Assembly (NCBI GenBank): GCA_964640635.1
Contig: CAZXFD010000002.1
Coordinates: forward strand, 26,153 to 90,152
Origin: an uncultured Gammaproteobacteria bacterium
Lineage (GTDB): Bacteria > Patescibacteriota > Patescibacteriia > UBA1558 > S5-K13
DNA: 64,000 nt
Direction: 5' to 3'
Below are positions 5,532-23,394 of this stretch, one piece after another. The notes under the pieces are model-generated. The model made no database searches. It was not told the origin of the DNA and saw only the letters and a program-made list of their open reading frames with translations. Position 1 is the stretch's first letter. Every line of letters begins with the position of its first letter. A program made the translations under genes and the position numbers.

Positions 5532-5594
5532 AATATTTTTTAAAATTATATTATCTCACTTGCATTCAATATTCGTATAATTAGCATGCATTAG

Positions 5595-5618
5595 TACCTG
5601 CCTACCGGCAGGCAGGTA
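5595..5618. repeat. GC-rich near-perfect palindrome tacCTGCCTaCCGGCAGGCAGGta
   Basis: It has one mismatch relative to the perfect copy at 7356-7375. It lies between the argS stop and the gatB start, so it probably acts as a terminator or attenuator. Confidence 0.6.
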
Positions 5619-5631
5619 TTAGCATCGCTTG

Positions 5632-7317: not shown

Positions 7318-7355
7318 GGGATAGTGTTTAGTATATATTCTAATCTTTTGACATT

Positions 7356-7375
7356 CCTGCCTGCCGGCAGGCAGG
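7356..7375. repeat. Perfect 20-bp GC palindrome CCTGCCTGCCGGCAGGCAGG
   Basis: The sequence is its own reverse complement. It sits between the glycosyltransferase stop and the argS start and is a sister copy of 5595-5618. Confidence 0.7.
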
Positions 7376-7376
7376 C

Positions 7377-7411
7377 GTCATTTGTCATTTGTCATTTGAC
7401 ATTTGTCATTT
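7377..7411. repeat. Tandem heptamer repeat (GTCATTT)x5 abutting the palindrome
   Basis: gtcatttgtcatttgtcatttgacatttgtcattt. It overlaps the stop of the upstream glycosyltransferase gene. Confidence 0.7.
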
Positions 7412-8578
7412 GAAATTAACAATGTGCTCCATCATTTGATCTACCTTTTTTTTCCAAGTATGTTCTTTTATAGCATCTAGTCTTGTTTCAATTTTCTCTG
7501 GGCTATTATTTAATTCTTCATTAATGCATGCATTAAATCTTTCAAAGTCATTAGCAACACTTACGACACTTCTAAATTGTTCTATACCCGGAGCATCTGT
7601 CGTAACAACTGGAATTCCACACGCCAAATATTCATATAATTTCATAGGACAGGTATATTTTATAAAATCATTTATATAGTGCGGAATTATTCCCACATCA
7701 AATCTACTTATATAATCCGGAGCCTCATTGTATTCTTTTGCTCCCAAAAGATAAATATTGGAAAATCTACGAAGTCTCTCTTCATCTTCTTTTCTCCAAA
7801 TAGGTCCAACAAGCACAATCGATTTATCTAAATTCTTTTTTGCAATATACTCAATCATGTCTAAATTAACCCTATTTTCTTGAATTATTCCCAAATAACC
7901 AATAATTGGTCTAGAAATCTTGGCTATATCATTATTTATTACCTTGTTTTTATTTGCATAATGAGCAAGATCAATTCCTTGAGTAATGTGATATATTTTA
8001 TCTGTTCTTGGATAAAAAATCTTTTCACTCTCTTCCGACAAAACAAAAATAATATTTGCTTTATCTCTTATTGTTTTATAGTTTTCTTCTAATTTTGTTT
8101 TTATATTTTTATAACTAGCATGTTCTGCCCAATTATCTACAGTATCAAAAACTGAGATGTCATATTCTATTTCATTAAAATATTCAACGTCAATAGGATA
8201 ATATGACCATAAAATAATATTTTTATAATTTTCTTTTTTTAAATATTCATCTATTTCTTTTAAATATTTTTTATGACCAAAAATATTTTGCACAGTTGAA
8301 TATACAAACACATTTTCTTCTGGACTATAAATCCTTGTAAAAGGTGATAATTTTATAGTTTTTCCTATATTATTTAAAAATATATTTTCCTTCCAATTAC
8401 GTAATGCTCTTTTTTTGGTTTGAGGAAGATAGTCAATTAGAAGTATTCTATTTACAAAATTATTAGATTTCAAAGAATTAAAAACTTGGAAGTTTCTATT
8501 ACTTATTCCTCTTTCCCAGTCTGTAAAACTAGACATAGAAAACATTACAATGTCATATTTCTTATCTTTTCTTATCAT
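7406..8578 (-). CDS. Glycosyltransferase family 1/4-like (GT-B fold)
   Basis: The C-terminal EYLACGIPVVTTDAPG block is typical of GT1/GT4 donor-binding domains. Its start overlaps the upstream gene by 4 nt (ATGA). Confidence 0.65.
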   Translation of the reverse strand: MIRKDKKYDIVMFSMSSFTDWERGISNRNFQVFNSLKSNNFVNRILLIDYLPQTKKRALRNWKENIFLNNIGKTIKLSPFTRIYSPEENVFVYSTVQNIFGHKKYLKEIDEYLKKENYKNIILWSYYPIDVEYFNEIEYDISVFDTVDNWAEHASYKNIKTKLEENYKTIRDKANIIFVLSEESEKIFYPRTDKIYHITQGIDLAHYANKNKVINNDIAKISRPIIGYLGIIQENRVNLDMIEYIAKKNLDKSIVLVGPIWRKEDEERLRRFSNIYLLGAKEYNEAPDYISRFDVGIIPHYINDFIKYTCPMKLYEYLACGIPVVTTDAPGIEQFRSVVSVANDFERFNACINEELNNSPEKIETRLDAIKEHTWKKKVDQMMEHIVNFK

Positions 8579-9699
8579 AAATTACTTTCTAATTTTTTAT
8601 AAATACCTTCCCACAAAAAACTATTTACTATTCTTTTATATGCATTTTCTCCTAATTCATTTCTAAATATAGGGTCATTCAATAAATACAAAATAGCATT
8701 CATTGCCTCTTCTTGATTATTTTCATCTATCAAAATCCCTGTCTTTCCATCTACAACAGCTTCAGCTCCTCCGCCAACCCTTGAAGCAATGCATGCTTTT
8801 TTAAATATACCAGCTTCAAGGTACACTATTCCAAAACCCTCTACATCTTCTTTACTTGTGCGACTTATCATTGCAAAAATATCTGATATAGCATAAAAAT
8901 ATGGAAGGTCTTCATCAACGACATTATCTAAAAATAAAATATTCTTTTCTAAATTTAAATCTTTTGCTTTTTGTTGCAAATATTGTAAATTTTCTCCACA
9001 CCCTATTATTAAATAAACCAAATCTTCTATATCTTTGTGGCGTCTTATCAAATTAATTGCATCAATAATAAGTTCATGATTTTTTCTTTTTACAACTCTG
9101 CCTACAGATAAGATGATTTTTTTATTTTTCAAATTATATTTATTTATAAGATTTTCTTTTTTGATTTCATCAATACGAAAAAAATCTTGACTAATACCTG
9201 GATAAAGTAATACTATTTTTTTAATTCGACCGGATAACTGGGTGAATCTATTCACCAATTCTAATGTTGTTTGACTATTTACAGTAATAAACTCTGCGTT
9301 TTGTAAAATTATTTTTGTAAGCACTTTTTTTCTACTACTGCTAGATGCTAACTTTATATCTAATCCATGAAGTGATACAAAATATGGAACTCTAAAAAAT
9401 ATTTTTAGTAAAAATGCACAAAAACCCAGTGGCAAAATATTGCCCACCCAAACTATTTCTATTTTTTCTTTTTTTGCTGTTTTTATAAGCTCAAAAAAAG
9501 ATTTAAGCCATTTTGGCCAAATAAATCTATATAATAGTTTTTTATATATAATCTTAAAACCTACCCCTCCACTTGGTTTTATATTAGACAAAACAACTAT
9601 TTTGTCTTTTGGGAACAACCTTGCTAGATTATAATAATAATTGCTTACTCCGCCTATATTTGGCCAGAAATCTAGGCTAATGAGAAGAGTTTTCTTCAT
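8575..9699 (-). CDS. Glycosyltransferase family 4
   Basis: EGFGIVYLEA (EX7E motif), GKTGIL, and an N-terminal DFWPNIGGVS like the GT4 N-domain. Confidence 0.8.
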   Translation of the reverse strand: MKKTLLISLDFWPNIGGVSNYYYNLARLFPKDKIVVLSNIKPSGGVGFKIIYKKLLYRFIWPKWLKSFFELIKTAKKEKIEIVWVGNILPLGFCAFLLKIFFRVPYFVSLHGLDIKLASSSSRKKVLTKIILQNAEFITVNSQTTLELVNRFTQLSGRIKKIVLLYPGISQDFFRIDEIKKENLINKYNLKNKKIILSVGRVVKRKNHELIIDAINLIRRHKDIEDLVYLIIGCGENLQYLQQKAKDLNLEKNILFLDNVVDEDLPYFYAISDIFAMISRTSKEDVEGFGIVYLEAGIFKKACIASRVGGGAEAVVDGKTGILIDENNQEEAMNAILYLLNDPIFRNELGENAYKRIVNSFLWEGIYKKLESNL

Positions 9700-9762
9700 T
9701 TGTATTAAAAAATTCTTTGTTAAAGACCTTTTTATTATATCATACCAAAAATCTTTCAGCTA

Positions 9763-9791
9763 TTGACAAATTATTTTTTTATTGTTAATAT
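9763..9791 (+). promoter_or_regulatory. Sigma70-like promoter (TTGACA, 17 nt, TAATAT) driving a non-coding transcript
   Basis: -35 at 9763-9768 and -10 at 9786-9791. No ORF with an RBS lies downstream before the terminator at 9999-10030. Confidence 0.4.
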
Positions 9792-9797
9792 GCATAT

Positions 9798-10030
9798 TAA
9801 TTAAGGTTCTTCCTCCTCCTTATTCTTAATTAGAGCCTAAATTAAAACAGGTCTTAGAACAAAAGGCCCAAAAGGCTGGGTATTGTCTATGACCGAGAGA
9901 AGCAACCAAGCTAAAATTTGCTGATATTGCGTTATTTTAATGCGATTAAAGCAATTTATGCTCAACCTCCTCCTTACTGCTTCGGCAACTTCTCGCGTGG
10001 GGTTCTAAATTAGAACCCCATTTTTTATTT
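9798..10030 (+). ncRNA. Candidate ~230-nt small RNA, promoter-to-terminator, with two CCUCCUCC(UU) anti-Shine-Dalgarno-like motifs
   Basis: The GC content is above the local background. There is no ORF longer than 22 codons and no RBS. CCUCCUCC occurs at 9812-9820 and 9967-9975. The transcript ends in a strong intrinsic terminator. Confidence 0.3.
9999..10030 (+). terminator. Strong intrinsic terminator (GGGGTTCTA-aat-TAGAACCCC then ATTTTTTATTT)
   Basis: Perfect 9-bp stem, 3-nt loop and a T-run. Confidence 0.7.
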
Positions 10031-10068
10031 GAAAAAATCTCGCGCATAAAGCGAGCTTTATACTTTTA

Positions 10069-10077
10069 TGATATAAT
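10069..10077 (+). promoter_or_regulatory. Extended -10 promoter element TGATATAAT only 6 nt upstream of the ATG (leaderless or near-leaderless mRNA)
   Basis: TGnTATAAT at 10069-10077 with the ATG at 10084. There is no room for an SD. A ctcgcgcataaagcgagc hairpin lies at the -35 position. Confidence 0.35.
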
Positions 10078-10083
10078 ATATAT

Positions 10084-11103
10084 ATGCAAAAAGCTTTATT
10101 ATACAAGAAAATAAAAAGTGGCGCTGTCCAATGTAGATTGTGCAATCATTTTTGTAAAATAGAAAATGCTTGTCTTGGTTTTTGTTGTACAAGAAAAAAT
10201 ATAGATGGTGACTTATATGTTCTCAATTACAACAAATTAATAGCAAAAAATGTCGACCCTATTGAAAAAAAACCACTCTTTCATTACATGCCATCTTCTC
10301 TTACTTATTCAATAGCTTGTATGGGTTGTAATTTAGCATGTTCCAATTGTCAAAACTGGCAAATATCACAAATAAATAAAATTGAAAAGCTTGATGAAGA
10401 ATTTCCAGGGGAAAATATTGAACCGTGTGATATTATTAATCTTGCAAAAAAAGAAAATTGCCCAACAATAGCATACACTTACAGCGAACCAACCATTTTT
10501 TTAGAAACAGCACTACCCATAATGAAGCTTGCACATACCAGTGGCCTCAAAAATATATGGGTTTCAAATGGATTTATGAGTAAAGAATGTCTTGATCTTA
10601 TATGTCCATATTTAGATGCCATAAATATAGATCTCAAATTTTTTAGTGAAGCAAAATACAAAAAAATAACAAACGCATCTTTGAAGCCAATACTAGATAA
10701 TCTAAAATATTTAAAATCAAAAAAAATATTTATAGAAATAACAACACTTCTTATTCCTGGAGAGACAAATACAAACAAACAATTGGAAAAAATAGCAAAA
10801 TTCATATACACAAATATTGGAAAAAATACCCCTTGGCACATATCCGCCTTTTCTCCAGAAATATCATTCAAACTACTTTCTAAAAAATCTAGTTCCATGA
10901 AAGAATTAGAATCCGCTTACCAAATAGGAAAAAATGCCGGATTAGAATTTGTATATCTTGGAAATATAGCCTCTGATACAAGAGAAAATACATATTGTCC
11001 CGCATGTGGATTTTTAAATATAGAAAGACAAGGATACATTATAACACGAGATGACAATAGTGGGCTTTGTCAAAACTGTAAATATAATTTAAACATCATA
11101 TAA
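10084..11103 (+). CDS. AmmeMemoRadiSam-system radical SAM enzyme
   Basis: VQCRLCNHFCKI...GFC N-terminal Cys motif, DPIEKKPLFHYMP, and a GCNLACSNCQNWQIS radical-SAM CxxxCxxC cluster. Together these match the family signature closely. Confidence 0.8.
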   Translation: MQKALLYKKIKSGAVQCRLCNHFCKIENACLGFCCTRKNIDGDLYVLNYNKLIAKNVDPIEKKPLFHYMPSSLTYSIACMGCNLACSNCQNWQISQINKIEKLDEEFPGENIEPCDIINLAKKENCPTIAYTYSEPTIFLETALPIMKLAHTSGLKNIWVSNGFMSKECLDLICPYLDAINIDLKFFSEAKYKKITNASLKPILDNLKYLKSKKIFIEITTLLIPGETNTNKQLEKIAKFIYTNIGKNTPWHISAFSPEISFKLLSKKSSSMKELESAYQIGKNAGLEFVYLGNIASDTRENTYCPACGFLNIERQGYIITRDDNSGLCQNCKYNLNII

Positions 11104-12530
11104 TGAAAAAAACGTTTATAATATCAATAGCAATTTTATCTATTTTTTTTGTAAAAAGTGCAAACTCGCAATGGTTTGATCCAGACTTTAATCCAAACTA
11201 TATTATATCCGACTTTGAACTTACGGATTATTCTTCCATGAGTATAAATGACATAAGATATTTCTTAAATCAAAATAATGGAATCCTAAAAAAATACACT
11301 GTTAAAAATCCGTCAAATGGGAAAACTATTGATGCTGCTGAAGTAATTTATAATGCATCAAAAGCATACAAAATAAACCCAAAATATATACTAGTATTAC
11401 TACAAAAAGAACAAAGTCTCATAACAGATCCAAGCCCAACACAAAAACAACTCGACTGGGCAACTGGATATGCTGTCTGTGATTCTTGTCTTATGACAGA
11501 TAATGAAATACAAAAATACAAAGGATTTTATAATCAAGTTACAAACGCTGCAAAAAGAAATAGATTTTATATAGACAACAAAAATACTCCTTGGTTTTTC
11601 CAAGCACAAAGCTATTACTCAATAGACGGACAAAGTGTTTCTCCTATAAACCAAGCTACAGCAAGTTTATATAATTATACCCCACATATAAATGGTAATT
11701 ATAATTTTTGGAAAATATGGCAAAAATGGTTTGCAAAAAAATACCCAAACGGATCCATAATCAAGGAAAATGGATCTCAAACAATCTGGCTTATAGAAGA
11801 TGATAAAAAAAGACCCTTTACAACATGGACATCTTTTATAAGTAGATACAAAAAAAACGATGTAATCAATGCAAATCATAGCGATCTTGCACAATATCCA
11901 ATAGGAATATCAATAAATTTTGAAAATTATTCATATCTTAGAACGCCCGATAAAAAAATTTACATGCTCGATAATGACAAGCTTCGAGAATTTGAATCAA
12001 GTGAAGTAAGTCGTTACTTTGGGATAAATCCTGAGGAGTTAATAGACATAACCTGGGAAGATTTCTATTATTATAGTCTTGGTGATAAAATTACTATGAA
12101 AAGCACGTATCCTAGCGGAGCCGTTATAGAAAATAAAGATGACAAAAAATTATATTATGTTAAAAATGGTTATAAGCACGAAATACAAGACAAAAGAATA
12201 TTAGAAACAAACTTCTCAAATCAATTCAAGTTAATATTAAGTAAAGATGAGGTAAATAATCTAGAAAATGCAGAACCCATAAAATTCAAAGACGGAACAC
12301 TAATCAAATCAAATATGGGTAATATAGTATTTATGGTCTCTGAAGGAAAAATCAAACCCATTAAAAACGAAAATAGTTTCAATGGACTTGGATATAAATG
12401 GACAAATATAATATCAGTTAGTGATAATCTATTAAAACAATATGAAGTCGGAGAAACAATAGAAATAAAAATAGAAGAGATAAAACCAGAAGATTTACTT
12501 CCTGAGACTAAAACAGAAAAACCATTATGA
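11103..12530 (+). CDS. Secreted hypothetical protein (signal peptide; weak lytic-transglycosylase-like LLQKEQS motif)
   Basis: The MKKTFIISIAILSIFFVKSANS signal peptide. The ATG overlaps the upstream stop (TAATG) and the downstream ATGA overlap indicates translational coupling. No AMMECR1 RGCIG motif is present. Confidence 0.6.
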   Translation: MKKTFIISIAILSIFFVKSANSQWFDPDFNPNYIISDFELTDYSSMSINDIRYFLNQNNGILKKYTVKNPSNGKTIDAAEVIYNASKAYKINPKYILVLLQKEQSLITDPSPTQKQLDWATGYAVCDSCLMTDNEIQKYKGFYNQVTNAAKRNRFYIDNKNTPWFFQAQSYYSIDGQSVSPINQATASLYNYTPHINGNYNFWKIWQKWFAKKYPNGSIIKENGSQTIWLIEDDKKRPFTTWTSFISRYKKNDVINANHSDLAQYPIGISINFENYSYLRTPDKKIYMLDNDKLREFESSEVSRYFGINPEELIDITWEDFYYYSLGDKITMKSTYPSGAVIENKDDKKLYYVKNGYKHEIQDKRILETNFSNQFKLILSKDEVNNLENAEPIKFKDGTLIKSNMGNIVFMVSEGKIKPIKNENSFNGLGYKWTNIISVSDNLLKQYEVGETIEIKIEEIKPEDLLPETKTEKPL

Positions 12531-13336
12531 CAAAAATTAAAACAATATTAATACCACATAACCCACTTGTTATTTCAAAAATTGGAGGTAAGTATTCCGA
12601 CACATTGAAATCCTCTATGGATGCAATGAAAAAAATTAGACAATCCATATATGAATTCAAACCAAAAAAAATAATTATAATAACTCCCCCAATAAAAGAT
12701 TTACAAAAAATATCAATACACCAAAAAGAAAAATATCATATTAATCTTAAAGATTTTGGTGATTTATCTATGGAGTTTGAAGTAAGTGGAGATATGGATT
12801 ATTCCACAAGACTAAAATATTTCTTAAGAAAAAATAATTTTGATGTCAATATGTTCTCTGGTGAAAAAACATATTATCAAAGCTTTGTACCATTGTATTA
12901 CTTGAATCAATTTCATATATCCTCAAAAGGCTTTGAAAATGAACTCAAAAAAGATGAAACTCTCAAGTCTGAATTTATAATAATCCACAGTTCAAATGAC
13001 ACAATAGATTATCATCTAAAATTTGGCAATTTGCTTTATGAATTCTTAAGAGACACAAAAGACAATATTTTAATTATAGCTTGCGGTGATTTCGCAAAAA
13101 AATCAGCACACGAGGAAAATGAAGATCTACCCAAATTAAGCTACAAACTTATAGACCTCATAAAATCAAAAAGCTTTGATGAAATCCTAAACATGAAAGA
13201 AGAATTAAAAAATGGCTATCCGTGGATAAAACCATTTGCTTCTATACTTCATTTTATAAACAAAAGCAAACGAAAACCCGTTATTTTATCTCTAGACAAA
13301 GAATTTCAAGAAATGTATATAACTATAGAGTTTTAA
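12527..13336 (+). CDS. Memo-like (AmmeMemoRadiSam protein B-like) protein, apparently degenerate
   Basis: IPHNPLVISKIGG resembles the vPHAGyvYSG block, KKIIIITPP resembles vvilGPsH, and FIIIHSSNDTIDYH resembles vvSSDlSHy. Several presumed metal ligands are substituted. Confidence 0.45.
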   Translation: MTKIKTILIPHNPLVISKIGGKYSDTLKSSMDAMKKIRQSIYEFKPKKIIIITPPIKDLQKISIHQKEKYHINLKDFGDLSMEFEVSGDMDYSTRLKYFLRKNNFDVNMFSGEKTYYQSFVPLYYLNQFHISSKGFENELKKDETLKSEFIIIHSSNDTIDYHLKFGNLLYEFLRDTKDNILIIACGDFAKKSAHEENEDLPKLSYKLIDLIKSKSFDEILNMKEELKNGYPWIKPFASILHFINKSKRKPVILSLDKEFQEMYITIEF

Positions 13337-14186
13337 GTTTTTTTGAAGAAGGGCAATTAGGAGGAAAAACTTTTCCTCTATTTTTTTTGATATAATAAAG
13401 CCAGCTTTTTATATGCGCTCTTGTAAGCTTATTAAACAAAATTGAAAACAATACATTTGTTTTGTTTTTTGAAGCTTGTTGATGCAAATGAATAGCGCAA
13501 ACACCACCCAAATAATACACCGAATATCCAGATTCCCACATTCTTCTGCAAACATCTATATCCTCTAAATACAAAAATATTCCTTCATCAAAATAATTGA
13601 TGTTTTCATAATTCTTTTTTCTTGTCATATAGCATGATCCCATGACCCAATCCACTTCTTGAATAGACTCATGATTTACATCTCTCATCAAAAAATTATC
13701 TAACCATTTTTTGCCTACATTTGTTTTTGATAAAATAGTTCTTCTAAATAAAGGGTAAAAAATATTTGGAAATCTAAAACATGTTTCTTGAAGTGTAGAA
13801 TCTCCATTCGTAAGTCGCGGAGCAACAATCCCGACCTTATCATGATTTTTCAAAAAATTATACATATACTCAATAGTCTCTTTTGATATCCTAATATCTG
13901 GATTTAAAATCAAAATATACTCACCCTTGGCTTGTTTTATGGCTACATTATTACCAGCACCACAACCCTTATTTACTCCTGTTTGAATAAATTTCACCCC
14001 TTCAAACTCCTTCATTACGATGTCTATATTGTCATGGGAGTTATTATCTACAACAATAATTTCTACATCAAAATAAAAGCTATAAGTAACCAATTTTCTT
14101 AATTGATACTTTATCAGATTTGCTAACTTGTAATTTAATATTATGATTGACAACATATATTTAATGAAGAAGTACAAAGTTATCAA
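13323..14186 (-). CDS. Glycosyltransferase family 2
   Basis: VEIIVVDNNSHD, a GxGxGNN segment and a YLEDID (DxD-like) motif. The N-terminal extension is atypical, so the true start may be internal. It overlaps the convergent + strand gene by 14 nt. Confidence 0.75.
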   Translation of the reverse strand: MITLYFFIKYMLSIIILNYKLANLIKYQLRKLVTYSFYFDVEIIVVDNNSHDNIDIVMKEFEGVKFIQTGVNKGCGAGNNVAIKQAKGEYILILNPDIRISKETIEYMYNFLKNHDKVGIVAPRLTNGDSTLQETCFRFPNIFYPLFRRTILSKTNVGKKWLDNFLMRDVNHESIQEVDWVMGSCYMTRKKNYENINYFDEGIFLYLEDIDVCRRMWESGYSVYYLGGVCAIHLHQQASKNKTNVLFSILFNKLTRAHIKSWLYYIKKNRGKVFPPNCPSSKKLKTL

Positions 14187-14230
14187 GTAAGAATTTTATT
14201 CCTTAAAACTTTATACTTTAAACTTTTTAC

Positions 14231-15247
14231 TTATTTATACCATTTATAAAGCTCTCTGCTTCTAATCTTCACGATATTTTTGAAAATAAACTTTCTTTTT
14301 TTAAACATTTTTTTATATTTATCATGACTTTTCCAAAAAAATTTTAGCGTGCTTCTTTCAAAAAGCAATACATAAATAAACTTTTTAAACTCATAGATAA
14401 ACAATGGGAAAAAACATCTAATAAAATTCATTGTAGACTCATTTTTAATAAGCAAATAAATATGATTTCTATAAGAATACTCATTTACCCAAGATGACTT
14501 GTTTTTTCTATTCTCTACCACACTCAAACCCCCACGAACAGATCTATCATGATAACAAATCATATCTGCTAAAAAATAGCTCTTGAATCCTGCTAAACGC
14601 AATCTAAATGCCAAATCAACATCTTCTTTATAGCTAAAAAAATCTTCATCAAAATATTCATTATTAATCTTAACATCTTCTAGTGCTTTTTTTGCATATA
14701 TGGGGCAAGCACCACATGGACCAAATATTTCTCTAGTTCTTGAAAATTCAACAGAATCCTCTTTCAATTGACCAAAATCTACAACCTTATGATTCTTAAA
14801 AACTTCAAAGCCACATGTATCTATAATATTTGTTTTTCCTTGCTTATCTGCATTGTATGGATCTTCATTATTGAACTTCCACTGATATAGTTTTGGCTCT
14901 ATTGATCCAATAGAATCCTTATCTTCTTGATTATCTATGAAATAAAATAGATTATCTAAAAAATCAGACTCAATAATCATATCTTGATTGAGGCACATTA
15001 TATAATCCGACTTTGCCCAATTCATTAATCTATTATGGGCTTTTGCAAAGCCAATATTTTCTTTATTTATAATTACTTTAAATTGAGGAAAATATTTATT
15101 TATCACAGCTACCGTATTATCATTTGAGCCATTATCCATTATGTTGAGCTCAAAATCTTTAAAATTTTGCTTTAAAACAGAATTAATACAGTGTTTAATG
15201 TATTTTTCTCCGTTCCATGTAACTAAATTTATACTTATTCTAGACAT
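14231..15247 (-). CDS. Glycosyltransferase family 2 (rhamnosyltransferase-like)
   Basis: ISINLVTWNGEKYI...DNGSNDNT N-terminal GT2 signature and an internal DxD-type region. Confidence 0.8.
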   Translation of the reverse strand: MSRISINLVTWNGEKYIKHCINSVLKQNFKDFELNIMDNGSNDNTVAVINKYFPQFKVIINKENIGFAKAHNRLMNWAKSDYIMCLNQDMIIESDFLDNLFYFIDNQEDKDSIGSIEPKLYQWKFNNEDPYNADKQGKTNIIDTCGFEVFKNHKVVDFGQLKEDSVEFSRTREIFGPCGACPIYAKKALEDVKINNEYFDEDFFSYKEDVDLAFRLRLAGFKSYFLADMICYHDRSVRGGLSVVENRKNKSSWVNEYSYRNHIYLLIKNESTMNFIRCFFPLFIYEFKKFIYVLLFERSTLKFFWKSHDKYKKMFKKRKFIFKNIVKIRSRELYKWYK

Positions 15248-15251
15248 TATT

Positions 15252-16724
15252 TTAGCTTGCAGCTGTCAGCTCTCGACCTTCAGCTAATTCGATTATACAA
15301 ATTATTAAAATCACAAAACCAATTCCTAGTGGATGATCTAAGTAAGGTGAAAAAATGTGAACCGCCAAAACGGCTAAAAAAGAAAGTAATAATGAAATAA
15401 AAATTACATTATTAGTCCTTATCAATCTAACAGAATCTCGCATTATTTTCAAGCTCAGAGAAATATAAAATATAAGCCCAAAAATACCCATTTTAAGCCA
15501 AAAGCTAAGCCATCCCCATTCAAAACTATATGTTGTTGTAAGTCCTGTTGGGTTGAAAACATTTTTATTTCTTGGGTCAAGGGAATAATAACTAATTTCA
15601 TGACCCATGCCGTATCCAATTATTGGAGAATTTTTTATATCCCTTAGCATGGGGTGCAATAATTCCATTCTTGAGTTACTACTAGAGTCTCCTTCACTTA
15701 CACGACCAGAGAGCATATCTGCAAAATTAATATGAGTATTTGGAATTTTCAGTAATATAAAAATTAATAATATTGAAAGAACAATAACCCCAAACAATTT
15801 TATATAATTTAAAAAAATTATTTTTATCTTTTGTTTTTGAAAAACTAGAATAAAAAATAAAAAAATAAATGCAATCACGACTCCAAGCCAATAACTACGA
15901 GAAAAACTAACAATAATTGCTGACAAATTTAATATCGATAAAGTATAAAAAAATATTTTATCTTTCTTTTGTAATTTAGAGGTCATTAAAACGACTGAAC
16001 TAATTACAAATGAAATCATTAAATATATTTGACTCTGAAAAAATATTCTATAAAAATGTTCATTCATCTTTGTAATCTCCCCCACCCTTGTATCTCTAAG
16101 CCATTTGTACAAAGTTGTATAGTCTATAAAACTAAATTGTTGAGAGAATAAATAAAATACAATAATTGTCTTTAGTGAAAAGAAAAGTGATGCGGAAAGA
16201 AATATATAAAACAAATTTGCGAAAACTTTCTTATCTTTTATAATTTGATAATAAATTGGCAGTATCAAAAAGAATAAAAAGTTATTAATATCAAAAAATA
16301 TGTTTGAGGGTTTTGTTTTGTTAAGCAGTGCTATTAAAACACCAAATACTAAAACTAAAATATAAACAACATAAAACCATATATACTTACTTTTTATAAA
16401 GTCTAACTTATTTTTTTTATATAAATAAATAAGTCCGGCTATAAAGGCAATTATAAAAATAAGCATTCTAAGAGACAATGAAAAACCAAACATATCAACA
16501 CTTATCAATCGTCCCTGAGATCCCACAAAAAGCTCTATAAAGCTTAAATATACCGCCCATTTAATATCTCTCGCTATTAAATATATAATACTTAATGCAA
16601 TTAATATAAAAGCAATAATTCCAAAAACATAAAATTGATGCGCAAAGAAAAATACTGAGTCCATTATTATAAGACCCAGAAATGTGATACGGAAATAATT
16701 GTTTTTTAAAATGTTAAAACTCAT
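15252..16724 (-). CDS. Polytopic membrane protein, O-antigen ligase / Wzy_C-like (could be a polymerase, ligase or O-oligosaccharyltransferase)
   Basis: About 11-12 predicted TM helices with a large loop containing NxxxG and H motifs, consistent with the Wzy_C family. Confidence 0.5.
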   Translation of the reverse strand: MSFNILKNNYFRITFLGLIIMDSVFFFAHQFYVFGIIAFILIALSIIYLIARDIKWAVYLSFIELFVGSQGRLISVDMFGFSLSLRMLIFIIAFIAGLIYLYKKNKLDFIKSKYIWFYVVYILVLVFGVLIALLNKTKPSNIFFDINNFLFFLILPIYYQIIKDKKVFANLFYIFLSASLFFSLKTIIVFYLFSQQFSFIDYTTLYKWLRDTRVGEITKMNEHFYRIFFQSQIYLMISFVISSVVLMTSKLQKKDKIFFYTLSILNLSAIIVSFSRSYWLGVVIAFIFLFFILVFQKQKIKIIFLNYIKLFGVIVLSILLIFILLKIPNTHINFADMLSGRVSEGDSSSNSRMELLHPMLRDIKNSPIIGYGMGHEISYYSLDPRNKNVFNPTGLTTTYSFEWGWLSFWLKMGIFGLIFYISLSLKIMRDSVRLIRTNNVIFISLLLSFLAVLAVHIFSPYLDHPLGIGFVILIICIIELAEGRELTAAS

Positions 16725-16727
16725 TTA

Positions 16728-19700
16728 TTATTTACTTCCCCTTATTATAACTTCATGCATTGTATCATTTCCCACCATATAGGTATTTGTCTCTTTTGCT
16801 TCAAACTTGACCCCTGTATCTTTACTTAGTTTTTCAAGTTGTTTCATAATTATCTGATATGATGTTTGCTCTCTAAATTGAGCAAATATAGGAATTATAT
16901 TATCTTTTTCAATATAATTTACCTTGTATGCTTCTACAAAAGCTAATATTAATGATCCTCCCGCTCTAGAATTTCCATCTGAAGCAAGATCTGATACATA
17001 TACAATATTTTCCGAATCCTTATCGTCTTTGTCCATTTTACCTTCATAAGCAAGAATATAGCCGTGCATTTTTTTGTCTTCTCCGGTATATTTAAAACTC
17101 ATCTCTGGTCTATTTTTTATCATATTATTAACATCTTTTGCAATGAGGGCATTTTCCATATTATGCAAATATTGAATCAATTTTTGATTATCTTTATATG
17201 CCTTTCCCTCAATATACGCAACCTTTATTGAATCTTGAAATGTAAGACTACTAATACCCCTTGGTAACTTCAATTCTAATCTTTTTAAATTTATTTTTTT
17301 CTTTTCTTGCATACCAGTAACTCTTGATAAAATAATCCCTTCTTTTTCCTCCTTAGATATATCTAACAACATTGATTCACCAAAATTTACATTATCACTA
17401 TAACCAACCGGAGCCTCTGGTACGGTTGTGTTTGCTATTCTATCAAGAGATATATTTGCATCAGTATACCCAAGACCTACTAATACCTTATTTTCATCTA
17501 AATTATATTTTTTTGCGAATCTTCTTATATATTCTTTAAAAAAATTAGCGTATAGAATTTTTAATACCTCTGTATTATTTCTTTGTGATTTAAAATTAGG
17601 TGCAACCTCTATATTATCGCATGTAATTATGCTCTGTTTATCTATTAAAACATCGTCGCTTACAATATCATGCATATGGGCCTCGAATTTATTTAGTTGG
17701 GCCACTACTTCTAATATATTTTTTTCTATATCAATATTTTTTGTAAGGACACTTTGAGCAATAGTTCTCCAATTTTTTTGTTTATTATTATCGCTAGATT
17801 CGGTCAATCTTTGAATAGTAAATAAAGAACATATGGGATTGAATGTGTATACATTACTTTTTCCGCTTCCAAATGGCATACAACAAGAAGTATCATTTCC
17901 AGCAACCACTCCATTAGGGTCTGATTTTAAATTTATTTTTGCACGATACTCTTCAATTATTCTATCATCTTCAAGTCCACTGTTCTGATTATATATTATA
18001 TTTAATATCTGATCCTTAATACTTTCTAATACCTGGGCTTTGTCTTCTTCTATTTTTCCAGACTGAAGATAAGGAACAATATTAATTTTGTTTTCTTTAA
18101 AAATCTTTTGTAGTTCAGAAAATAATTTATCCGGATTTTTTGCTTCCCCTAGCACACCCTCTCTTCTTTTTCCGATTGCTTTTAATATTAATTCGTTTAA
18201 TTCCAAGCTTCCGTATTTACCGCTAGATATCATTAATTTATAATCTATTTCTAAAGGTTCAAATACTTGTAAATTATCATAATCCCCCTCCACAAGAGCA
18301 TCTCTTAAATCATCCGAGGATAAATCTAGGTGTGAAATTACTATATAATTTGATGGCTTTTTTCTATCATGAACCTCTCTTGGTGTATGACTATCTGATA
18401 ACTGCAAAAATCTTCCTGAATTTTTCCAAAACTCCATCACTTTTTGCATTTCAATATTAGGATGAAACGCGAGTTTTTCAATATAATTATATAAATTTAT
18501 TTTTCCAATACTCTTCAACTCTTTTAGCTGATCCAATATTTCTTTTCTATTTAAAATTTGACATAAATCATTATATTTCCTAAGCATTTTCCAAGAAGAA
18601 AATACATCTCCAACGCTTCGTATTTCTTTTAGTAATTTATCTAGAGTTGGCAAACCGTATTCTTTTGCTTGAGACAATGTTTCTTCTAAATTGGAATTAA
18701 TATTGCGAGAAATGCTATTTAATACATGATATGAGCTACCAATTTCATAAACAGCTGTATCATCTTTTATTTGTTTTAATATATTATTATAAAATTCATT
18801 TGCAGATAATCCAGAAACATTGTATAAGTCTATTATTTTCAAAAAATTATGAAGAGCATCATGCTTAGAAATATTGGGCCTTTCAATATAATTGAACATT
18901 TTAGAATAACCAAATATCTTAGCCCCTGTTTCAAAAGGAATTAATATATTTTGTTCATCTATCCAGTTTTCATGTTTTCTTTTCAGTTTGTCAAATATAT
19001 ATTGACTTTTCACCTCACTTCCCATTGTTCTTATCTTATCTAAATCATCTTTAATGAAATAGAGCTCCGATGGTAATAAATTTAAATTCTTTGCATCATC
19101 AAATATGTAATCGCAATCTTTTGAAAAAAATCCATGTCCATTATCAATGCTCTTAAAATAAGATTTTTCAATGCAATAATCTAAATCACCCTTAGATAAA
19201 ACCACATTAAACTCTTCTTTAATTTTTGAGGCTTTATCTATATATAGCAACAAACACCTTATCATACCCTCTTTAGCAGCCTCAATGACAAGCTCTTCTG
19301 ATACATTAAATTTATCTTTTATTAAAATACCTGCATCAAAGTTTCCCTCAGAAAATCTATTTACCATTCCTTCTTTTGCATATTGTTGTATTTTTGAAGA
19401 TGCAATCATTTCATCGCTAATATTATATTTCTCTATTATACTTATTGCATTATAAATCATTCTCGAAGCTACGGAGATTTTCGATATCGCTTGAACTACA
19501 GCATCCAAAATAGTTTCTTCATTTAGATGAAACGTGTCTATTATTTCCTGTACAAAATCACGCCTTAAATCATTCGATAGAGCCCACGCAATTACTTCTT
19601 TTGCGGCATCCGAAACAATTTCTTCATTTACATGAAACCTATTAATTAGCTCTATAGTCTCCTTTATTCCCTTTGTCCGAAGTAAATCTATTACTATTGG

Positions 19701-22493
19701 TAACATTAATTTTTGCGTTTCTTCAGATTCTAATACTTGGGGAGAAACTTTAAATATATCTATAAAAATTAAGGGGTCTTTTGTTTGTGCATTTTTTAAG
19801 CAACATGATAATCCATTTTGGATAGCAGTCTGAAAGTCTTGAGATTCAAAAAATTCATTAGGAAAATTATATTCCCTTTGTATATCAATTGCAGTAAATA
19901 CATCTACTAGGTTACACATTGGGGACAAGAGCGTTATCATTTTTAATTTTATTACATCTTGCACTTCTTGAGACTGCAATATATCACTCGACAAATTAAA
20001 TTCTTTTTTTAATTTTACTAAATTGTGAGTATCTAAATATACTGATGTATTGAGTATTCTAGCCTTAATAGCAAATTGTATTTCTTGGGACTGTAGAATA
20101 TCATCTGACGCTGATAATATTTGTCTTATATGAATTGCTCTATCTATTCTATTATCCGAAAACTCTGCTATTATTGCCGATTTTATAGCATTTATAATTT
20201 CTTGAGACTGCAATACATCCTCTGATACATAAAATTCTTCTTTTATTCTTAATATACCGTTTATATTTTTACTCAATAAAAACTGTAACATACATATTTT
20301 TACAGCGTCCTGCATTTCTTGAGACTGCAATACATCCTCTGATACATAAAATTCCATTTTTATATTTATTGCTTCATCTATGTCTCCGACAGAAATTTGT
20401 CTTATAATTTGTTCTTTGGCGGCTTCTTGAATCTCAGAAAATTTACAAATTCTCTCTACAGATGGTTCACTTTCTACATTATCATTTATTAACTCTTCAT
20501 CAATAAGGCCCTCTGCTTCTACTATAATAGGATCATCTATTACTATAAATCGTTTCTTAATTTTTATTGCTTCATATACTTTTCCTGATGATAAATATTG
20601 TATTATTCCTATTTTTACCGCATCTTGCATTTCTTGAGATTGTAATATCTGAAAAGAGAGATGAAATTTATCTTGTATGTTTATTGCCTCGTATAAGCCT
20701 CCCGATGACAAAAGGTGAATTATTACTAATTTTACACAATCATCCATATCATCTTTTGAAATGCCCACTTTTTCTTGAAGTTCTCTGGCTCTATATAAAT
20801 CTCGATGAGGATATAAAAAGCTACGTATTATTTTTTTTGCAATATTTTGAAAAACTTCTTCTGATATTCTAAGTTTTTCTTTAATTTTTATTGCGCTATC
20901 TATAGAATTATTGTGCATAAGACGTGATATTGCATTTTCTCCAGCATACTGCACTTCCTTAGAAAATAATATTTCATCCGTAATTTGAAATTTTTCAAAA
21001 AACCCAATTACTGTATCTATATAATATGAAGCTTCATTTAATAATCCTATCAATCCAATTTTTACGGCATCCTGCACCTCTTTAGAAAGTATCACCTCGC
21101 TAGAAACTTGAAACTTATCTATAATTTTGATTGTTTCATGTGTAAACTTCTTCGTAAGAGAATTTATTAACCCTTTTTTTATTGCATCATCAATTCCATC
21201 TGTTATTTCTATGTCAGTAGATAATTTAAATACACTTCTTAGTCTAATAACTAAATCTGAATTATAACCACTAGATAAAATATTTATTACATTTTGTTTT
21301 GCAAGCGATTGAAGATCTTCAGATAATATAACCTCCTCTGATATTTGAAATTTTTCTATAATTTGAAGGACTGTATTTACATAATTTGTTGACTTTCCAA
21401 GTAGGCTAATTATTGTTTGTTTTGCTGAATCTTGAATTTCTTTAGACTTTATTACTTCGTCTGGGATTTGAAATCTATTTACAAATTCTACTGCATGATC
21501 GACGCCATATGCACTAGATAACTTATTTGCCATTCCTTTTCTTGCAGCATCTTGAATTTCTTTAGACTTTATTACTTCTTCTGAGATTGGAAATTTTGTT
21601 ATAATTTCTAAAGCTCGAACAATGTTAAAATTCCAATTAGATAAACACATCATTATTGCTTGTTTTGTATATTTTAATATAGAATCTTTAGAGATACTTA
21701 ATTTTTCTAACAACTTCTCCAGATCATCTAAATTACTATAATATAAAGCATTAGCCATACCCTTATCCGCTGCATCTCTGAGCTTTTTAGATGTTAATAT
21801 TTTTTCTGATACATCAAACTCTTCTATAAGTTCTAGAATTTTATTTGCATCAGCCCCTACTGATAACTCGCTTATAATTTTATTAACCACAGCCTTTTGA
21901 ATTTTCTCTAAATATGTATTTTCTTGTATATTAAATTTCTTTTTTAGCTCTATTACACCGTGAACATAGTCCCCTTTACCAGTTTCAAGTGAATCTATAA
22001 TAGATTTTTGCGTGGCCTTTTGCATACTTGACTGTTTTATAACATCTTCTGAAATATTAAATTCTTCTTTAATTTTTATTGCATTTTCTAAATCATTATT
22101 CGACAAACGATTTATTATTTCTTTACTAGCCATGCTCTGTATTTCTTGAGATTCCAATACCTCTGGCGATATATTAAATTTTTCTTTTATATTTAAAGCA
22201 CCCCATATATATCCTTCCGATAAACAGTTTATTATTCCCTTTTTTGCAGCATCCTGAACCATTGGGAAATTAATTAGAGTTTCAGAAAAATTATTTTTTT
22301 CTAATATATCTATGGCATTTTTGTTTTCTCCCCAATCTGATAATTTTGAGATCATTTCTTCTAAATCTTCTTTTTGTTCTTCTGACAAACTTAAATATTC
22401 ATCTAATTCATAGAGGCTTTTAGGCGTATCATCTTTTTCTAAGTTTTTTAATTCTATGTCCTCAATATTTATTTGTTGTGGCTTTTCTAACAT
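16728..22493 (-). CDS. Giant (1,921 aa) cytoplasmic tandem-repeat protein of unknown function; ~25-30 copies of a 39-40-aa helical repeat plus a ~700-aa non-repetitive C-terminal region
   Basis: Repeat consensus roughly F-[NQ]-[IV]-S-E-[ED]-V-[IL]-x-S-[KQ]-E-[IM]-Q-D-A-x-K-x-G-[MI]-[IA]-N-x-L-S. DNA repeats with periods of 117 and 120 bp occur, e.g. 20198-20237 vs 20315-20356. There is no signal peptide. The C-terminal tail has a GNAT-like Rx(x)GG segment, which is weak evidence. Confidence 0.8.
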   Translation of the reverse strand: MLEKPQQINIEDIELKNLEKDDTPKSLYELDEYLSLSEEQKEDLEEMISKLSDWGENKNAIDILEKNNFSETLINFPMVQDAAKKGIINCLSEGYIWGALNIKEKFNISPEVLESQEIQSMASKEIINRLSNNDLENAIKIKEEFNISEDVIKQSSMQKATQKSIIDSLETGKGDYVHGVIELKKKFNIQENTYLEKIQKAVVNKIISELSVGADANKILELIEEFDVSEKILTSKKLRDAADKGMANALYYSNLDDLEKLLEKLSISKDSILKYTKQAIMMCLSNWNFNIVRALEIITKFPISEEVIKSKEIQDAARKGMANKLSSAYGVDHAVEFVNRFQIPDEVIKSKEIQDSAKQTIISLLGKSTNYVNTVLQIIEKFQISEEVILSEDLQSLAKQNVINILSSGYNSDLVIRLRSVFKLSTDIEITDGIDDAIKKGLINSLTKKFTHETIKIIDKFQVSSEVILSKEVQDAVKIGLIGLLNEASYYIDTVIGFFEKFQITDEILFSKEVQYAGENAISRLMHNNSIDSAIKIKEKLRISEEVFQNIAKKIIRSFLYPHRDLYRARELQEKVGISKDDMDDCVKLVIIHLLSSGGLYEAINIQDKFHLSFQILQSQEMQDAVKIGIIQYLSSGKVYEAIKIKKRFIVIDDPIIVEAEGLIDEELINDNVESEPSVERICKFSEIQEAAKEQIIRQISVGDIDEAINIKMEFYVSEDVLQSQEMQDAVKICMLQFLLSKNINGILRIKEEFYVSEDVLQSQEIINAIKSAIIAEFSDNRIDRAIHIRQILSASDDILQSQEIQFAIKARILNTSVYLDTHNLVKLKKEFNLSSDILQSQEVQDVIKLKMITLLSPMCNLVDVFTAIDIQREYNFPNEFFESQDFQTAIQNGLSCCLKNAQTKDPLIFIDIFKVSPQVLESEETQKLMLPIVIDLLRTKGIKETIELINRFHVNEEIVSDAAKEVIAWALSNDLRRDFVQEIIDTFHLNEETILDAVVQAISKISVASRMIYNAISIIEKYNISDEMIASSKIQQYAKEGMVNRFSEGNFDAGILIKDKFNVSEELVIEAAKEGMIRCLLLYIDKASKIKEEFNVVLSKGDLDYCIEKSYFKSIDNGHGFFSKDCDYIFDDAKNLNLLPSELYFIKDDLDKIRTMGSEVKSQYIFDKLKRKHENWIDEQNILIPFETGAKIFGYSKMFNYIERPNISKHDALHNFLKIIDLYNVSGLSANEFYNNILKQIKDDTAVYEIGSSYHVLNSISRNINSNLEETLSQAKEYGLPTLDKLLKEIRSVGDVFSSWKMLRKYNDLCQILNRKEILDQLKELKSIGKINLYNYIEKLAFHPNIEMQKVMEFWKNSGRFLQLSDSHTPREVHDRKKPSNYIVISHLDLSSDDLRDALVEGDYDNLQVFEPLEIDYKLMISSGKYGSLELNELILKAIGKRREGVLGEAKNPDKLFSELQKIFKENKINIVPYLQSGKIEEDKAQVLESIKDQILNIIYNQNSGLEDDRIIEEYRAKINLKSDPNGVVAGNDTSCCMPFGSGKSNVYTFNPICSLFTIQRLTESSDNNKQKNWRTIAQSVLTKNIDIEKNILEVVAQLNKFEAHMHDIVSDDVLIDKQSIITCDNIEVAPNFKSQRNNTEVLKILYANFFKEYIRRFAKKYNLDENKVLVGLGYTDANISLDRIANTTVPEAPVGYSDNVNFGESMLLDISKEEKEGIILSRVTGMQEKKKINLKRLELKLPRGISSLTFQDSIKVAYIEGKAYKDNQKLIQYLHNMENALIAKDVNNMIKNRPEMSFKYTGEDKKMHGYILAYEGKMDKDDKDSENIVYVSDLASDGNSRAGGSLILAFVEAYKVNYIEKDNIIPIFAQFREQTSYQIIMKQLEKLSKDTGVKFEAKETNTYMVGNDTMHEVIIRGSK

Positions 22494-22497
22494 ATAT

Positions 22498-23394
22498 TTA
22501 TAAGTATTTTTTCTTTTTAGGTAATATTTTTAGTTTTGCGCCCACTACAACAAGTCGGACAATAAACCAATTTAAAACAATAAAAAATTGCAAAATTAAA
22601 ATCTGTAATTTACTTTTATGCTTTTTGAAATATACTGATAAGCTTTTATTAAATGTTTTTTGATTTTTTAATATTTTTTCTTGTTTAAAGCTTTCGCCTT
22701 TGTGATGCTTAATAGAGGTAATCGGTGTAAAAATTATATCAAGACCAGCCTCTTTAATTCTTGCACAGAGATCTACTTCTTCAAATAAAAGCCAGTAATC
22801 CTCGTCTAAAAGTCCTCCGACTCGCTCAACAACATCCTTTCTTGTTAGTAAAAATGCACCCATTACTTGTTCTACTTTTTTTTCACTATTATAATCAAAA
22901 TCCAGCATATAATATTTTTTTATAGCTGGAATAAGATATGGAAAAAAATTGTGCAGTTTTAATAACACAAAGATCTGAGATGCTAATGTAGGAAGTCTAC
23001 GGCAAGATGATTGAAGTGTAGAATCACTATTTAATAATTTACATGCCACTGCTCCAATATCAACGCGCGAGTCAAATAACTCAACAAGTTTCTTTAAGCT
23101 TCCATCTTCTATAAATTCTGTGTCTGGATTAAGTAGTAATACATGTTCATGTTTTGATAGTTTATAGCCAATATTATTTGCCTTTGCAAAACCAAGATTC
23201 CCACCTGATTGTATATATCTAGCTTGAGGATATTTACTATTTACCATGTCCTCGCTTCCATCATTTGAGTCATTGTCAATTACAATCACATCTAAATCAA
23301 TGTCAGTATTAAATCTAAACAAAGATTCAAGAGCTTTGTCTAGTAAATCTTTTACTTTATAATTTACGATAATTACAGATATTTGATTCAACAT
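22498..23394 (-). CDS. Glycosyltransferase family 2
   Basis: ISVIIVNYKVKDLL and IVIDNDSNDGS motifs, with a DxD region. Confidence 0.8.
   Translation of the reverse strand: MLNQISVIIVNYKVKDLLDKALESLFRFNTDIDLDVIVIDNDSNDGSEDMVNSKYPQARYIQSGGNLGFAKANNIGYKLSKHEHVLLLNPDTEFIEDGSLKKLVELFDSRVDIGAVACKLLNSDSTLQSSCRRLPTLASQIFVLLKLHNFFPYLIPAIKKYYMLDFDYNSEKKVEQVMGAFLLTRKDVVERVGGLLDEDYWLLFEEVDLCARIKEAGLDIIFTPITSIKHHKGESFKQEKILKNQKTFNKSLSVYFKKHKSKLQILILQFFIVLNWFIVRLVVVGAKLKILPKKKKYL

Follow-up and report, generated by a model that had tools for sequence, protein, structure and literature searches.

The window that we examined, a stretch of 64,000 nucleotides on contig CAZXFD010000002.1 (G+C content ~29%), carries on its minus strand a compact run of genes for three family-2 glycosyltransferases (GT2a, GT2b and GT2c), a Wzy_C-family membrane enzyme and a repeat protein of 1,921 amino acids (aa), followed at some distance by two genes for family-4 glycosyltransferases (GT4a and GT4b; Table 1). 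Judged from its sequence, the host is a member of the Patescibacteria, or candidate phyla radiation (CPR). We regard the glycosyltransferase (GT) and Wzy_C genes as a copy of a gene cluster conserved across the CPR and lean, at a little better than even confidence, towards the view that this cluster encodes a Wzx/Wzy-type pathway for a conserved surface glycan, in which the Wzy_C protein would most likely act as the polymerase.

GT classes were assigned from Pfam, as GT-A (PF00535) or GT-B (PF00534, PF13692, PF13439). The three GT2, the two GT4 and the Wzy_C genes reported in an earlier note on this DNA are all borne out, in identity and position, by the list of open reading frames (ORFs) and by Pfam. 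The tight packing that it described is likewise present: gap, GT2a, the 1,921-aa gene, Wzy_C, GT2b and GT2c follow one another at intervals of 23, 4, 3, 4 and 44 nt, the last becoming 74 nt if GT2c begins at 14156, its probable start (277 aa) according to the gene call on an identical public contig. The single operon that it proposed does not hold. A plus-strand run of three genes (radical SAM, 475-aa protein and Memo) converges on GT2c and overlaps its 3' end by 14 nt, and because these convergent genes separate the GT4 pair from GT2c, the pair is a separate transcription unit. Its two ORFs overlap by 4 nt, and argS and gatB lie downstream.

Table 1. Genes and other features of the window, with the evidence for each assignment.
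Feature	Coordinates	Strand	Evidence
gap	23418-24416	-	ORF list; upstream of GT2a
GT2a, 298 aa, C-terminal membrane helix at aa 261-291	22498..23394	-	PF00535 5e-20
1,921-aa repeat protein, predicted cytoplasmic	16728..22493	-	no Pfam/NCBIfam match
C-terminal module of the 1,921-aa protein, ~750 aa	16728-19301	-
Wzy_C-family polytopic membrane enzyme, 490 aa	15252..16724	-	PF04932 4e-19
GT2b, soluble GT2, 338 aa	14231..15247	-	PF00535 5e-25
GT2c, family-2 glycosyltransferase, 287-aa ORF	13323..14186	-	PF00535 3e-19
Radical SAM (AmmeMemoRadiSam) + 475-aa protein + Memo	10084..13336	+	TIGR04337 1e-88, LigB/Memo
475-aa protein	11103-12530	+	no Pfam, NCBIfam or PDB match
GT4a, family-4 glycosyltransferase	8575..9699	-	PF00534 7e-42, PF13439
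GT4b, TuaH-like GT4	7406..8578	-	PF13692, PF13524
670-aa DUF11 protein, N-terminal membrane anchor	33350-35362	-	DUF11
1,060-aa protein, N-terminal membrane anchor	40654-43836	-	three LamG (Laminin_G_3) stretches + DUF2341
6,693-aa ORF, N-terminal hydrophobic anchor	43896-63977	-	sub-threshold collagen-repeat match, the only Pfam trace

A cluster conserved across the candidate phyla radiation

A Wzy_C protein identical to that of the window is encoded on a 305-kb NCBI contig and on Logan metagenome contigs. Relatives of the protein occur in at least 579 genomes among the GTDB species representatives, and homologues named 'O-antigen ligase family protein' come from Patescibacteria, Komeilibacteria, Parcubacteria, Magasanikbacteria and similar groups. 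We sampled the gene neighbourhoods of the 80 best GTDB loci and labelled their ORFs by homology to the window proteins. A Wzy_C ORF is present in 78 of the 80, GT2 genes in 75, GT4a in 49 and GT4b in 22, the GT4b orthogroup having a median score of 318 bits. Half of the loci (40/80) also encode a protein of ~485 aa, which is a Wzx flippase of the Polysacc_synt/Polysacc_synt_3 families (PF01943/PF13440), matching PF01943 at 1e-29 to 6e-37 in the orthologous clusters. Where at least 5 kb of sequence is available ahead of Wzy_C (55 loci), a wzx gene of the same strand precedes it by 1.75-5.5 kb in 35 cases, and GT4a normally lies just downstream of wzx. The usual order, wzx-GT4a-GT4b-GT2a-Wzy_C-GT2b-GT2c, is complete in 11 loci and found in many partial copies that end at contig ends, and a reduced form, wzx-GT4a-GT2-Wzy_C, is present in 19.

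GT2a is the direct upstream neighbour of Wzy_C in 44 of 78 loci, overlapping it or lying within 10 nt in 34 of these 44, and GT2b is its downstream neighbour in 32 of 78, with GT2c following GT2b in the common arrangement. In most of the other CPR loci GT4a-GT4b stands directly upstream of GT2a. Outside the window clade, by which we mean loci L006, L007 and L009-L016, whose Wzy_C proteins are 49-89% identical, the five GT orthogroups remain distinguishable from one another. Given that the same five orthogroups flank Wzy_C in dozens of other CPR genomes, the grouping of these glycosyltransferases with Wzy_C is not a matter of chance. The other recurrent neighbours are translation-related housekeeping genes, namely those for ribosomal proteins, rpoA, lysS, greA and serS; elsewhere in the CPR the cluster follows ribosomal-protein genes, and rpsI is among its commonest neighbours. 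No pilin, S-layer or other target-protein gene recurs beside Wzy_C in the 80 loci.

It was already known that the Wzy_C gene is labelled 'O-antigen ligase family protein' in databases; in the literature on the Patescibacteria/CPR cell envelope, on Wzx and on O-antigen ligases we found no description of the cluster. The copy in the window is a rearranged member of a well-known class of pathways, and the type of pathway is an ordinary one.

Several smaller observations were made in the same loci. In the reduced form, a small protein of 140-161 aa is often encoded between GT2 and Wzy_C (L018, L037, L051, L052, L058, L059, L074, L080, L084 and L088). The L037 and L052 copies have an N-terminal hydrophobic segment, and the one in L037 belongs to DUF192 (PF02643). 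Downstream of GT2c, six loci (L042, L048, L069, L083, L085 and L086) carry a trio of genes: one for a ~655-aa membrane protein of the DUF4012 family, one for a ~335-aa MreB-like protein, so called from sequence only, and a further one that is GT4a-like. The Candidatus Buchananbacteria metagenome-assembled genome (MAG) Bin_492 holds two Wzy_C copies on different contigs, L063 (WJKP01000045.1) and L078 (WJKP01000015.1), so that some genomes have Wzy_C paralogues. Contigs in GTDB titled 'uncultured Gammaproteobacteria bacterium' carry the CPR-type cluster in L010, L011, L013, L014, L016-L018 and many others, among them the contig with an 89%-identical Wzy_C and the gene order of the window, and one cluster-bearing contig is titled 'Lysobacteraceae'. 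Such MAG titles (from binchicken/SRP co-assemblies) look like placeholders or errors.

The Wzy_C protein and the glycosyltransferases

Pfam places the Wzy_C protein in PF04932 with a score of 69.2 bits (cut-off 31.7), and the match runs over residues 263-421 and model positions 3-149. Its AlphaFold2 (AF2) model (predicted local distance difference test, pLDDT, 90.3; predicted template modelling score, pTM, 0.91) has a WaaL/SEDS-like polytopic fold with a 77-residue loop at residues 327-403. The only significant PDB match of the model is WaaL (7tpg; E 7e-5, TM-score 0.47/0.55), followed by FtsW and RodA; compared with PDB sequences by phmmer and with a family profile, the protein gave no match. 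Short loops rich in Lys and Arg mark the cytoplasmic side, and these positive-inside charges back the predicted topology. The alignment of 44 Wzy_C sequences, in which identity between CPR classes is 30-38%, contains 33 invariant columns. All ten of the charged or His invariants that we mapped (R210, E216, R226, R276, R341, R352, D383, R385, E402 and H464) fall on predicted outer-face loops.

E. coli WaaL alone gives no significant match to Wzy_C by hhalign or hmmsearch, whereas hhalign joins the CPR profile to a WaaL profile of six sequences (E. coli K-12 and five homologues from a plasmid database) with a probability of 78% (E 1.8e-5, 167 columns). The aligned pairs of Wzy_C and WaaL residues include R276/R215, R352/R288 and R385/R312, all three invariant in the CPR family. 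The three WaaL arginines are invariant in their own family too, and two of them have been shown to be essential. In WaaL, R215, R288 and H338 are reported to be important and are conserved in PglL (PMC3643930), and a His is essential in both enzymes, H338 in WaaL and H349 in PglL. Between residues 380 and 420 of Wzy_C no column holds a conserved His, whether at the H338 position or near it. The residue opposite H338 is E402 with the Pfam model, T397 in one hhalign run and K411 in the profile alignment, and the only invariant His of the CPR family is H464, in the next outer loop. The alignment of the arginines is consistent with binding of a polyprenyl-diphosphate-linked donor at the outer face, and from its residues Wzy_C looks built to bind such a donor.

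The S-layer O-oligosaccharyltransferases WsaB and WsfB of Gram-positive bacteria also carry Wzy_C (PMC2943079). With these enzymes, and with PglL and PilO (TfpO), the CPR protein has the domain in common and would share a lipid-linked glycan delivered by a Wzx-type pathway, but it differs from them in lacking PglL_A, an H349 equivalent, a C-terminal extension or TPR domain like those of PglL and WsfB (the whole protein has 490 aa), and an adjacent target gene. For PglL we followed the published arrangement of PglL_A and PglL_B flanking Wzy_C (PMC3643930); PglL_A (PF15864) gave no match in a Pfam scan at E<=0.01, PF04932 being the sole match, and PglL_B is not in Pfam. Compared with WaaL (7tpg; E. 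coli K-12), the CPR protein belongs to the same Pfam family, finds in it the top structural match and shares the three aligned arginines, but the HxHN motif of WaaL, which includes the essential H338, is without a counterpart, and the CPR gene lies in a wzx/GT cluster rather than a core-oligosaccharide locus, in a host group held to lack lipopolysaccharide (LPS). By the residues in its sequence, Wzy_C thus conforms to neither canonical WaaL nor PglL. Patescibacteria are generally held to lack an outer membrane and LPS, which, given that the host belongs to the CPR, makes lipid A-core an implausible acceptor. The earlier note had come to doubt this acceptor as well, and rightly so, as the relatives are annotated as Patescibacteria and Komeilibacteria; no lpx or waa genes are present in the 64-kb window. 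With the catalytic His missing and no O-antigen acceptor, the database label 'O-antigen ligase' should not be taken literally.

The glycosyltransferases have more generic affinities. The C-terminal membrane helix of GT2a is kept in 34 of 48 orthologues. Its nearest PDB sequences are chondroitin synthase and generic GT-A enzymes that use nucleoside-diphosphate (NDP) sugars, not GtrB or DPMS, and its NCBIfam matches are MftF, HpsN, PgaC, EpsD and a rhamnosyltransferase. We considered GT2a as a polyprenyl-phosphate sugar synthase of the GtrB/Dpm1 type paired with Wzy_C, and rejected this for want of similarity to GtrB, DPMS or ArnC. GT2b weakly resembles TuaG, EpsD and PgaC in NCBIfam, all under the curated cut-offs, and is nearest to GalT1 and chondroitin synthase among PDB sequences. 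GT2c has a weak match to the rhamnosyltransferase subfamily TIGR01556. GT4a matches the TuaC model, far under its curated cut-off, and the top NCBIfam match of GT4b is TuaH (1.7e-29), near full model length and again far under the cut-off; GT4b gave no PDB sequence match by phmmer or profile.

Local rearrangement and the 1,921-aa protein

The earlier note had remarked on the lack of a flippase, an initiating transferase and NDP-sugar genes. For the window itself this is correct. We found no Wzx with a hidden Markov model (HMM) built from 40 CPR Wzx proteins and with phmmer, run against six-frame translations; no MraY/WecA-type transferase and no WecG with MraY, WecG and MurJ probes; and no NDP-sugar enzyme when the larger ORFs were scanned with Pfam. 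An enzyme of the WbaP type (Bac_transf) was also absent, a search covered only by Pfam scans of the window ORFs and of cluster representatives. No MraY/WecA-like match appears across the 80 loci either, and the 4 kb that we recovered to the left of the window hold housekeeping genes only, with no wzx. No LCP ligase is present in the window or among the recurrent neighbours, and no Wzz/PCP regulator is found among the annotated recurrent neighbour clusters, although no dedicated Wzz search was made. As a feature of the system, however, the absence of these parts does not stand, Wzx being encoded upstream in 35 of 55 orthologous loci. Since Wzx is usual in the orthologous clusters, the absent flippase probably reflects a displacement in this lineage. 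Sugar-nucleotide genes can likewise be unlinked in this group: in a close relative, rmlC, rmlB, rmlD and rmlA are located in another part of the genome. Rhamnose is a plausible component of the glycan, which fits the weak matches of the GT2 enzymes to rhamnosyltransferase models.

In the window clade the cluster follows the POR and gap genes and is without an adjacent wzx. This adjacency of gap is specific to the clade, and we therefore discarded the proposal of the earlier note that gap heads the functional unit. The Memo, 475-aa and radical-SAM genes lie between GT2c and the GT4 genes in L006, L007 and L011-L013, the loci that reach far enough. The 1,921-aa gene, by contrast, separates GT2a from Wzy_C in the window and L007 alone, and not in L013 or L009-L012. 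L013, whose Wzy_C is 89% identical, keeps the gene order of the window as far as argS without the 1,921-aa gene, and only 120 nt separate its GT2a from its Wzy_C. Neither the lack of a flippase nor the giant gene inside the unit is hence a sign of an unusual mechanism; both are local rearrangements of a standard cluster.

The 1,921-aa protein is indeed a repeat protein, as the earlier note had it: residues 46-1097 form 27 tandem helical repeats of ~38 aa each. It has no signal peptide and no membrane or hydrophobic segment. Its C-terminal ~750 aa are a CPR-wide module that ends in a GNAT fold, shared, at 30-75% identity, by 120 proteins that come from many different CPR classes; clustered at 50% identity, homologues of the module amount to 480 representatives, of which 310 reach E<=1e-30, and the repeat region N-terminal to it varies from ~200 to 1,800 aa among homologues. 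Near-invariant motifs of the module include GNDT(A/S)CCMPFGSGK, IITCDNIEVAPN and YLHNMENALIAKD. No Pfam match was found for the module in any of 36 members, there is no NCBIfam model, and the C-terminus gave no match to PDB sequences. In the AF2 model (pLDDT 88.7), Foldseek matches the last ~180 aa to Naa10, Ard1, RimI and EctA (probability 1.00, target TM 0.55-0.66), and the GNAT fold resembles protein N-terminal acetyltransferases. The protein is enzyme-like and predicted to be cytoplasmic. Because it has neither a signal peptide nor a membrane segment, it is an unlikely target of an outer-face transferase, and the idea that it is a secreted fibre or a glycosylation target was abandoned on these grounds, on the GNAT C-terminus and on the absence of the gene from this position in L013.

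Nor does the giant protein belong to the conserved part of the cluster in which it sits. None of the 80 Wzy_C loci has a homologue within 10 kb, and around 41 members of the giant family we counted 193 neighbour genes in 157 clusters, none present in more than three loci. Neighbours elsewhere include secA, recO and purine genes. Envelope genes (mraY/ftsW/murG, rml and femAB) appear in six contexts, an association that is recurrent but not conserved, and no conserved genomic context was found for the family. The homologue in L133 is flanked by ftsW and murG, and the one in L005 stands immediately upstream of mraY. In a close relative (L098, positions 1358-14210; GCA_019248035.1, JAEHHJ010000004.1) the homologue lies between rmlB and rmlD, in an rmlC, rmlB, rmlD, rmlA set to which a PMT_2 (GT-C) glycosyltransferase also belongs.

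The remaining features of the window can be treated briefly. The radical SAM/475-aa/Memo trio is outside the glycan pathway. Its 475-aa protein occupies the spot expected for AMMECR1, between the AmmeMemoRadiSam radical SAM gene and Memo, and its gene keeps this place beside Memo in L006-L008 as well as in 13 of the 80 CPR loci. The 1,060-aa LamG and 670-aa DUF11 proteins are candidate surface or adhesion proteins, and the 6,693-aa ORF, which starts 24 nt from the window end and may be longer, probably encodes a giant surface protein. A scan for promoter-like sites found 140 against 116 expected and is uninformative at 29% GC. Terminator-like hairpins worth noting lie upstream of gap (24549-24529) and after Memo, and tRNA and Rfam scans of the window gave no matches.

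A possible surface glycan pathway and its alternatives

The gene set of the conserved cluster, a flippase, five glycosyltransferases of the cytoplasmic face and a WaaL-fold enzyme of the outer face, is the reason for reading it as a Wzx/Wzy-type assembly system. Gene identities, conserved synteny, fold, residue conservation and the rearrangements are observed; which lipid serves as the carrier, in which direction the glycan is transferred and that Wzy_C is a polymerase and not a ligase are what we infer. On this view the five glycosyltransferases (GT2 and GT4), with GT2a anchored in the membrane, would lengthen an oligosaccharide borne by polyprenyl diphosphate on the inner side of the membrane, and a Wzx-type flippase would then move the lipid-linked unit outward. 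Wzy_C could bind the diphosphate-linked glycan through its conserved outer-face arginines and transfer it onto another lipid-linked unit, acting as a polymerase of the Wzy/TuaE type. The product would be a conserved wall-associated glycopolymer in an organism without LPS. In the window clade the cluster is broken up: wzx has lost its place beside the other genes, the Memo/radical-SAM unit splits off the GT4 pair and, in the window and L007, an unrelated GNAT-repeat gene, whose product is predicted to be cytoplasmic, separates GT2a from Wzy_C, two genes that are as a rule translationally coupled. We favour polymerase activity because Wzy_C stands in the middle of a GT/wzx cluster and not beside a target gene, and because it lacks the His of the ligases and oligosaccharyltransferases as well as the PglL motif. 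Taken alone, however, the assignment of Wzy_C as a polymerase has well under an even chance of being right.

Known systems offer two instructive comparisons. Enterobacterial common antigen (ECA) is a surface glycan whose gene set is conserved across a whole large clade, unlike the hypervariable O-antigens, and the GT orthogroups and membrane enzyme of the CPR are likewise conserved. On the other hand, the WzyE of ECA is not of the same Pfam family as the CPR enzyme, and wecA, wzzE and genes for sugar nucleotides form part of ECA loci. The CPR cluster is known from genes alone and comes in at least two architectures. The tua operon of Bacillus subtilis (tuaABCDEFGH) also has GT2 (TuaG) and GT4 (TuaC and TuaH) enzymes. 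In that operon TuaB is the Wzx and TuaE a Wzy-type polymerase, and TuaF has a Wzz-like role (PMC9018123). A flippase, a proposed or known polymerase, GT2 and GT4 are the parts that the two systems have in common, the CPR host, like B. subtilis, is held to be without an outer membrane, and TuaH, TuaC and TuaG are the best or good NCBIfam matches of GT4b, GT4a and GT2b, respectively. Yet the CPR genes are not Tua orthologues, as all scores are far under the cut-offs. A TuaA-type initiator, the UDP-glucose dehydrogenase TuaD and TuaF are neither in the window nor recurrent in the CPR cluster, which in addition includes three GT2 genes and stands in constitutive synteny with genes for ribosomal proteins.

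Several points weigh against the polymerase pathway. The window is without a flippase, an initiating phosphoglycosyl transferase, a Wzz-type co-polymerase and an LCP ligase, and the last three are not recurrent neighbours of the cluster either; with the flippase and the initiating enzyme not found, the pathway is incomplete as observed. The Tua-like matches are all far under the curated cut-offs. The argument from the missing His is also open to objection, since the WaaL alignment has a probability of only 78%, the three alignments differ on the counterpart of H338, and the invariant H464 could replace the missing His in three dimensions. Typical O-antigen polymerases are much less conserved than the CPR Wzy_C family, and such high conservation would equally suit a ligase with a conserved acceptor. 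None of the tests that we ran separates a polymerase from a ligase.

Two alternatives concern the reaction of Wzy_C itself. As an O-oligosaccharyltransferase, it might transfer the glycan en bloc to Ser, Thr or Tyr of a secreted protein, be it a pilin, an S-layer protein or a large protein of the window. The Wzy_C domain is present in PglL and PilO and in the S-layer enzymes WsaB and WsfB of Gram-positive bacteria (PMC3643930, PMC2943079), so strongly conserved a family would go well with an acceptor that is itself conserved, and large anchored proteins (the DUF11, LamG and 6,693-aa ones) are encoded in the window. Against this, Wzy_C has no PF15864 match, no His of the kind required in WaaL and PglL and no additional C-terminal or TPR domain, while its neighbours in the 80 loci are glycosyltransferases, wzx and housekeeping genes instead of a recurrent target, and a cytoplasmic location is predicted for the 1,921-aa protein next to it. 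The role in protein glycosylation that the earlier note had raised has hence gained no support from the motif, the His or the neighbourhood, and we consider it unlikely. Wzy_C might also be a ligase that joins the glycan to a glycolipid anchor or to peptidoglycan, giving an unpolymerised lipoglycan or a wall-linked oligosaccharide. Its top PDB match is WaaL, the donor-side arginines are kept, the family is highly conserved, and neither a Wzz-type regulator nor an LCP ligase recurs in the cluster, all of which would fit a ligase. The catalytic His of WaaL is absent, though, no genes for the synthesis of an acceptor are linked to the cluster, and nothing positive distinguishes ligation from polymerisation, so that this seems to us improbable, more so than transfer to protein.

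The other two alternatives concern the window lineage and its embedded gene. The GNAT-repeat protein could be a working part of the pathway, acetylating a sugar or precursor or serving as a scaffold for the glycosyltransferases. GNAT sugar N-acetyltransferases exist, and homologues of the giant protein are found at rmlB/rmlD, mraY, ftsW/murG and femAB, besides the place between GT2a and Wzy_C in the window and L007. But the absence of a homologue from all 80 Wzy_C loci, and from this position in L013 with its closely similar Wzy_C, tells against such a part, as do the scattered neighbours of the family, secA, recO and purine genes among them, and a domain that resembles protein N-terminal acetyltransferases; we rate its involvement as slightly less probable still than a non-protein ligase. 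It is highly improbable, finally, that the cluster in this lineage is a decaying remnant from which no surface glycan is made. The lack of wzx in the 64 kb and in the 4 kb to the left, together with two insertions that disrupt the ancestral unit, would agree with decay, but all six ORFs are full length, the window Wzy_C matches all 33 invariant columns of the 44-sequence alignment, and the rearranged order persists in L009-L016 at 49-89% identity, which implies purifying selection.

Given how highly Wzy_C and the GT orthogroups are conserved, either the product or its acceptor would be conserved across much of the phylum. A bolder version, which we put forward tentatively and with more doubt than belief, is that of a 'CPR common antigen': one Wzx-exported glycan, common to a large part of the Patescibacteria, built by five orthologous glycosyltransferases and completed by a clade-specific Wzy_C that would retain the arginines with which WaaL binds diphosphate but do without its catalytic His, using E402, K411 or H464 in its place. 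Patescibacteria are very small, mostly uncultivated and attached to other cells, and their surface chemistry is essentially unknown. The interest of the cluster lies in its conservation across the phylum and in its non-canonical active-site residues, and not in supposedly missing components. Orthologous glycosyltransferases in hundreds of species-level genomes suggest a shared surface glycoconjugate rather than strain-variable antigens, and the conserved cluster provides a concrete target for glycomics, for antibodies or lectins, and for genetics in the few cultivable members. If the common antigen exists, this conserved coat could be the surface that CPR episymbionts present to their hosts.

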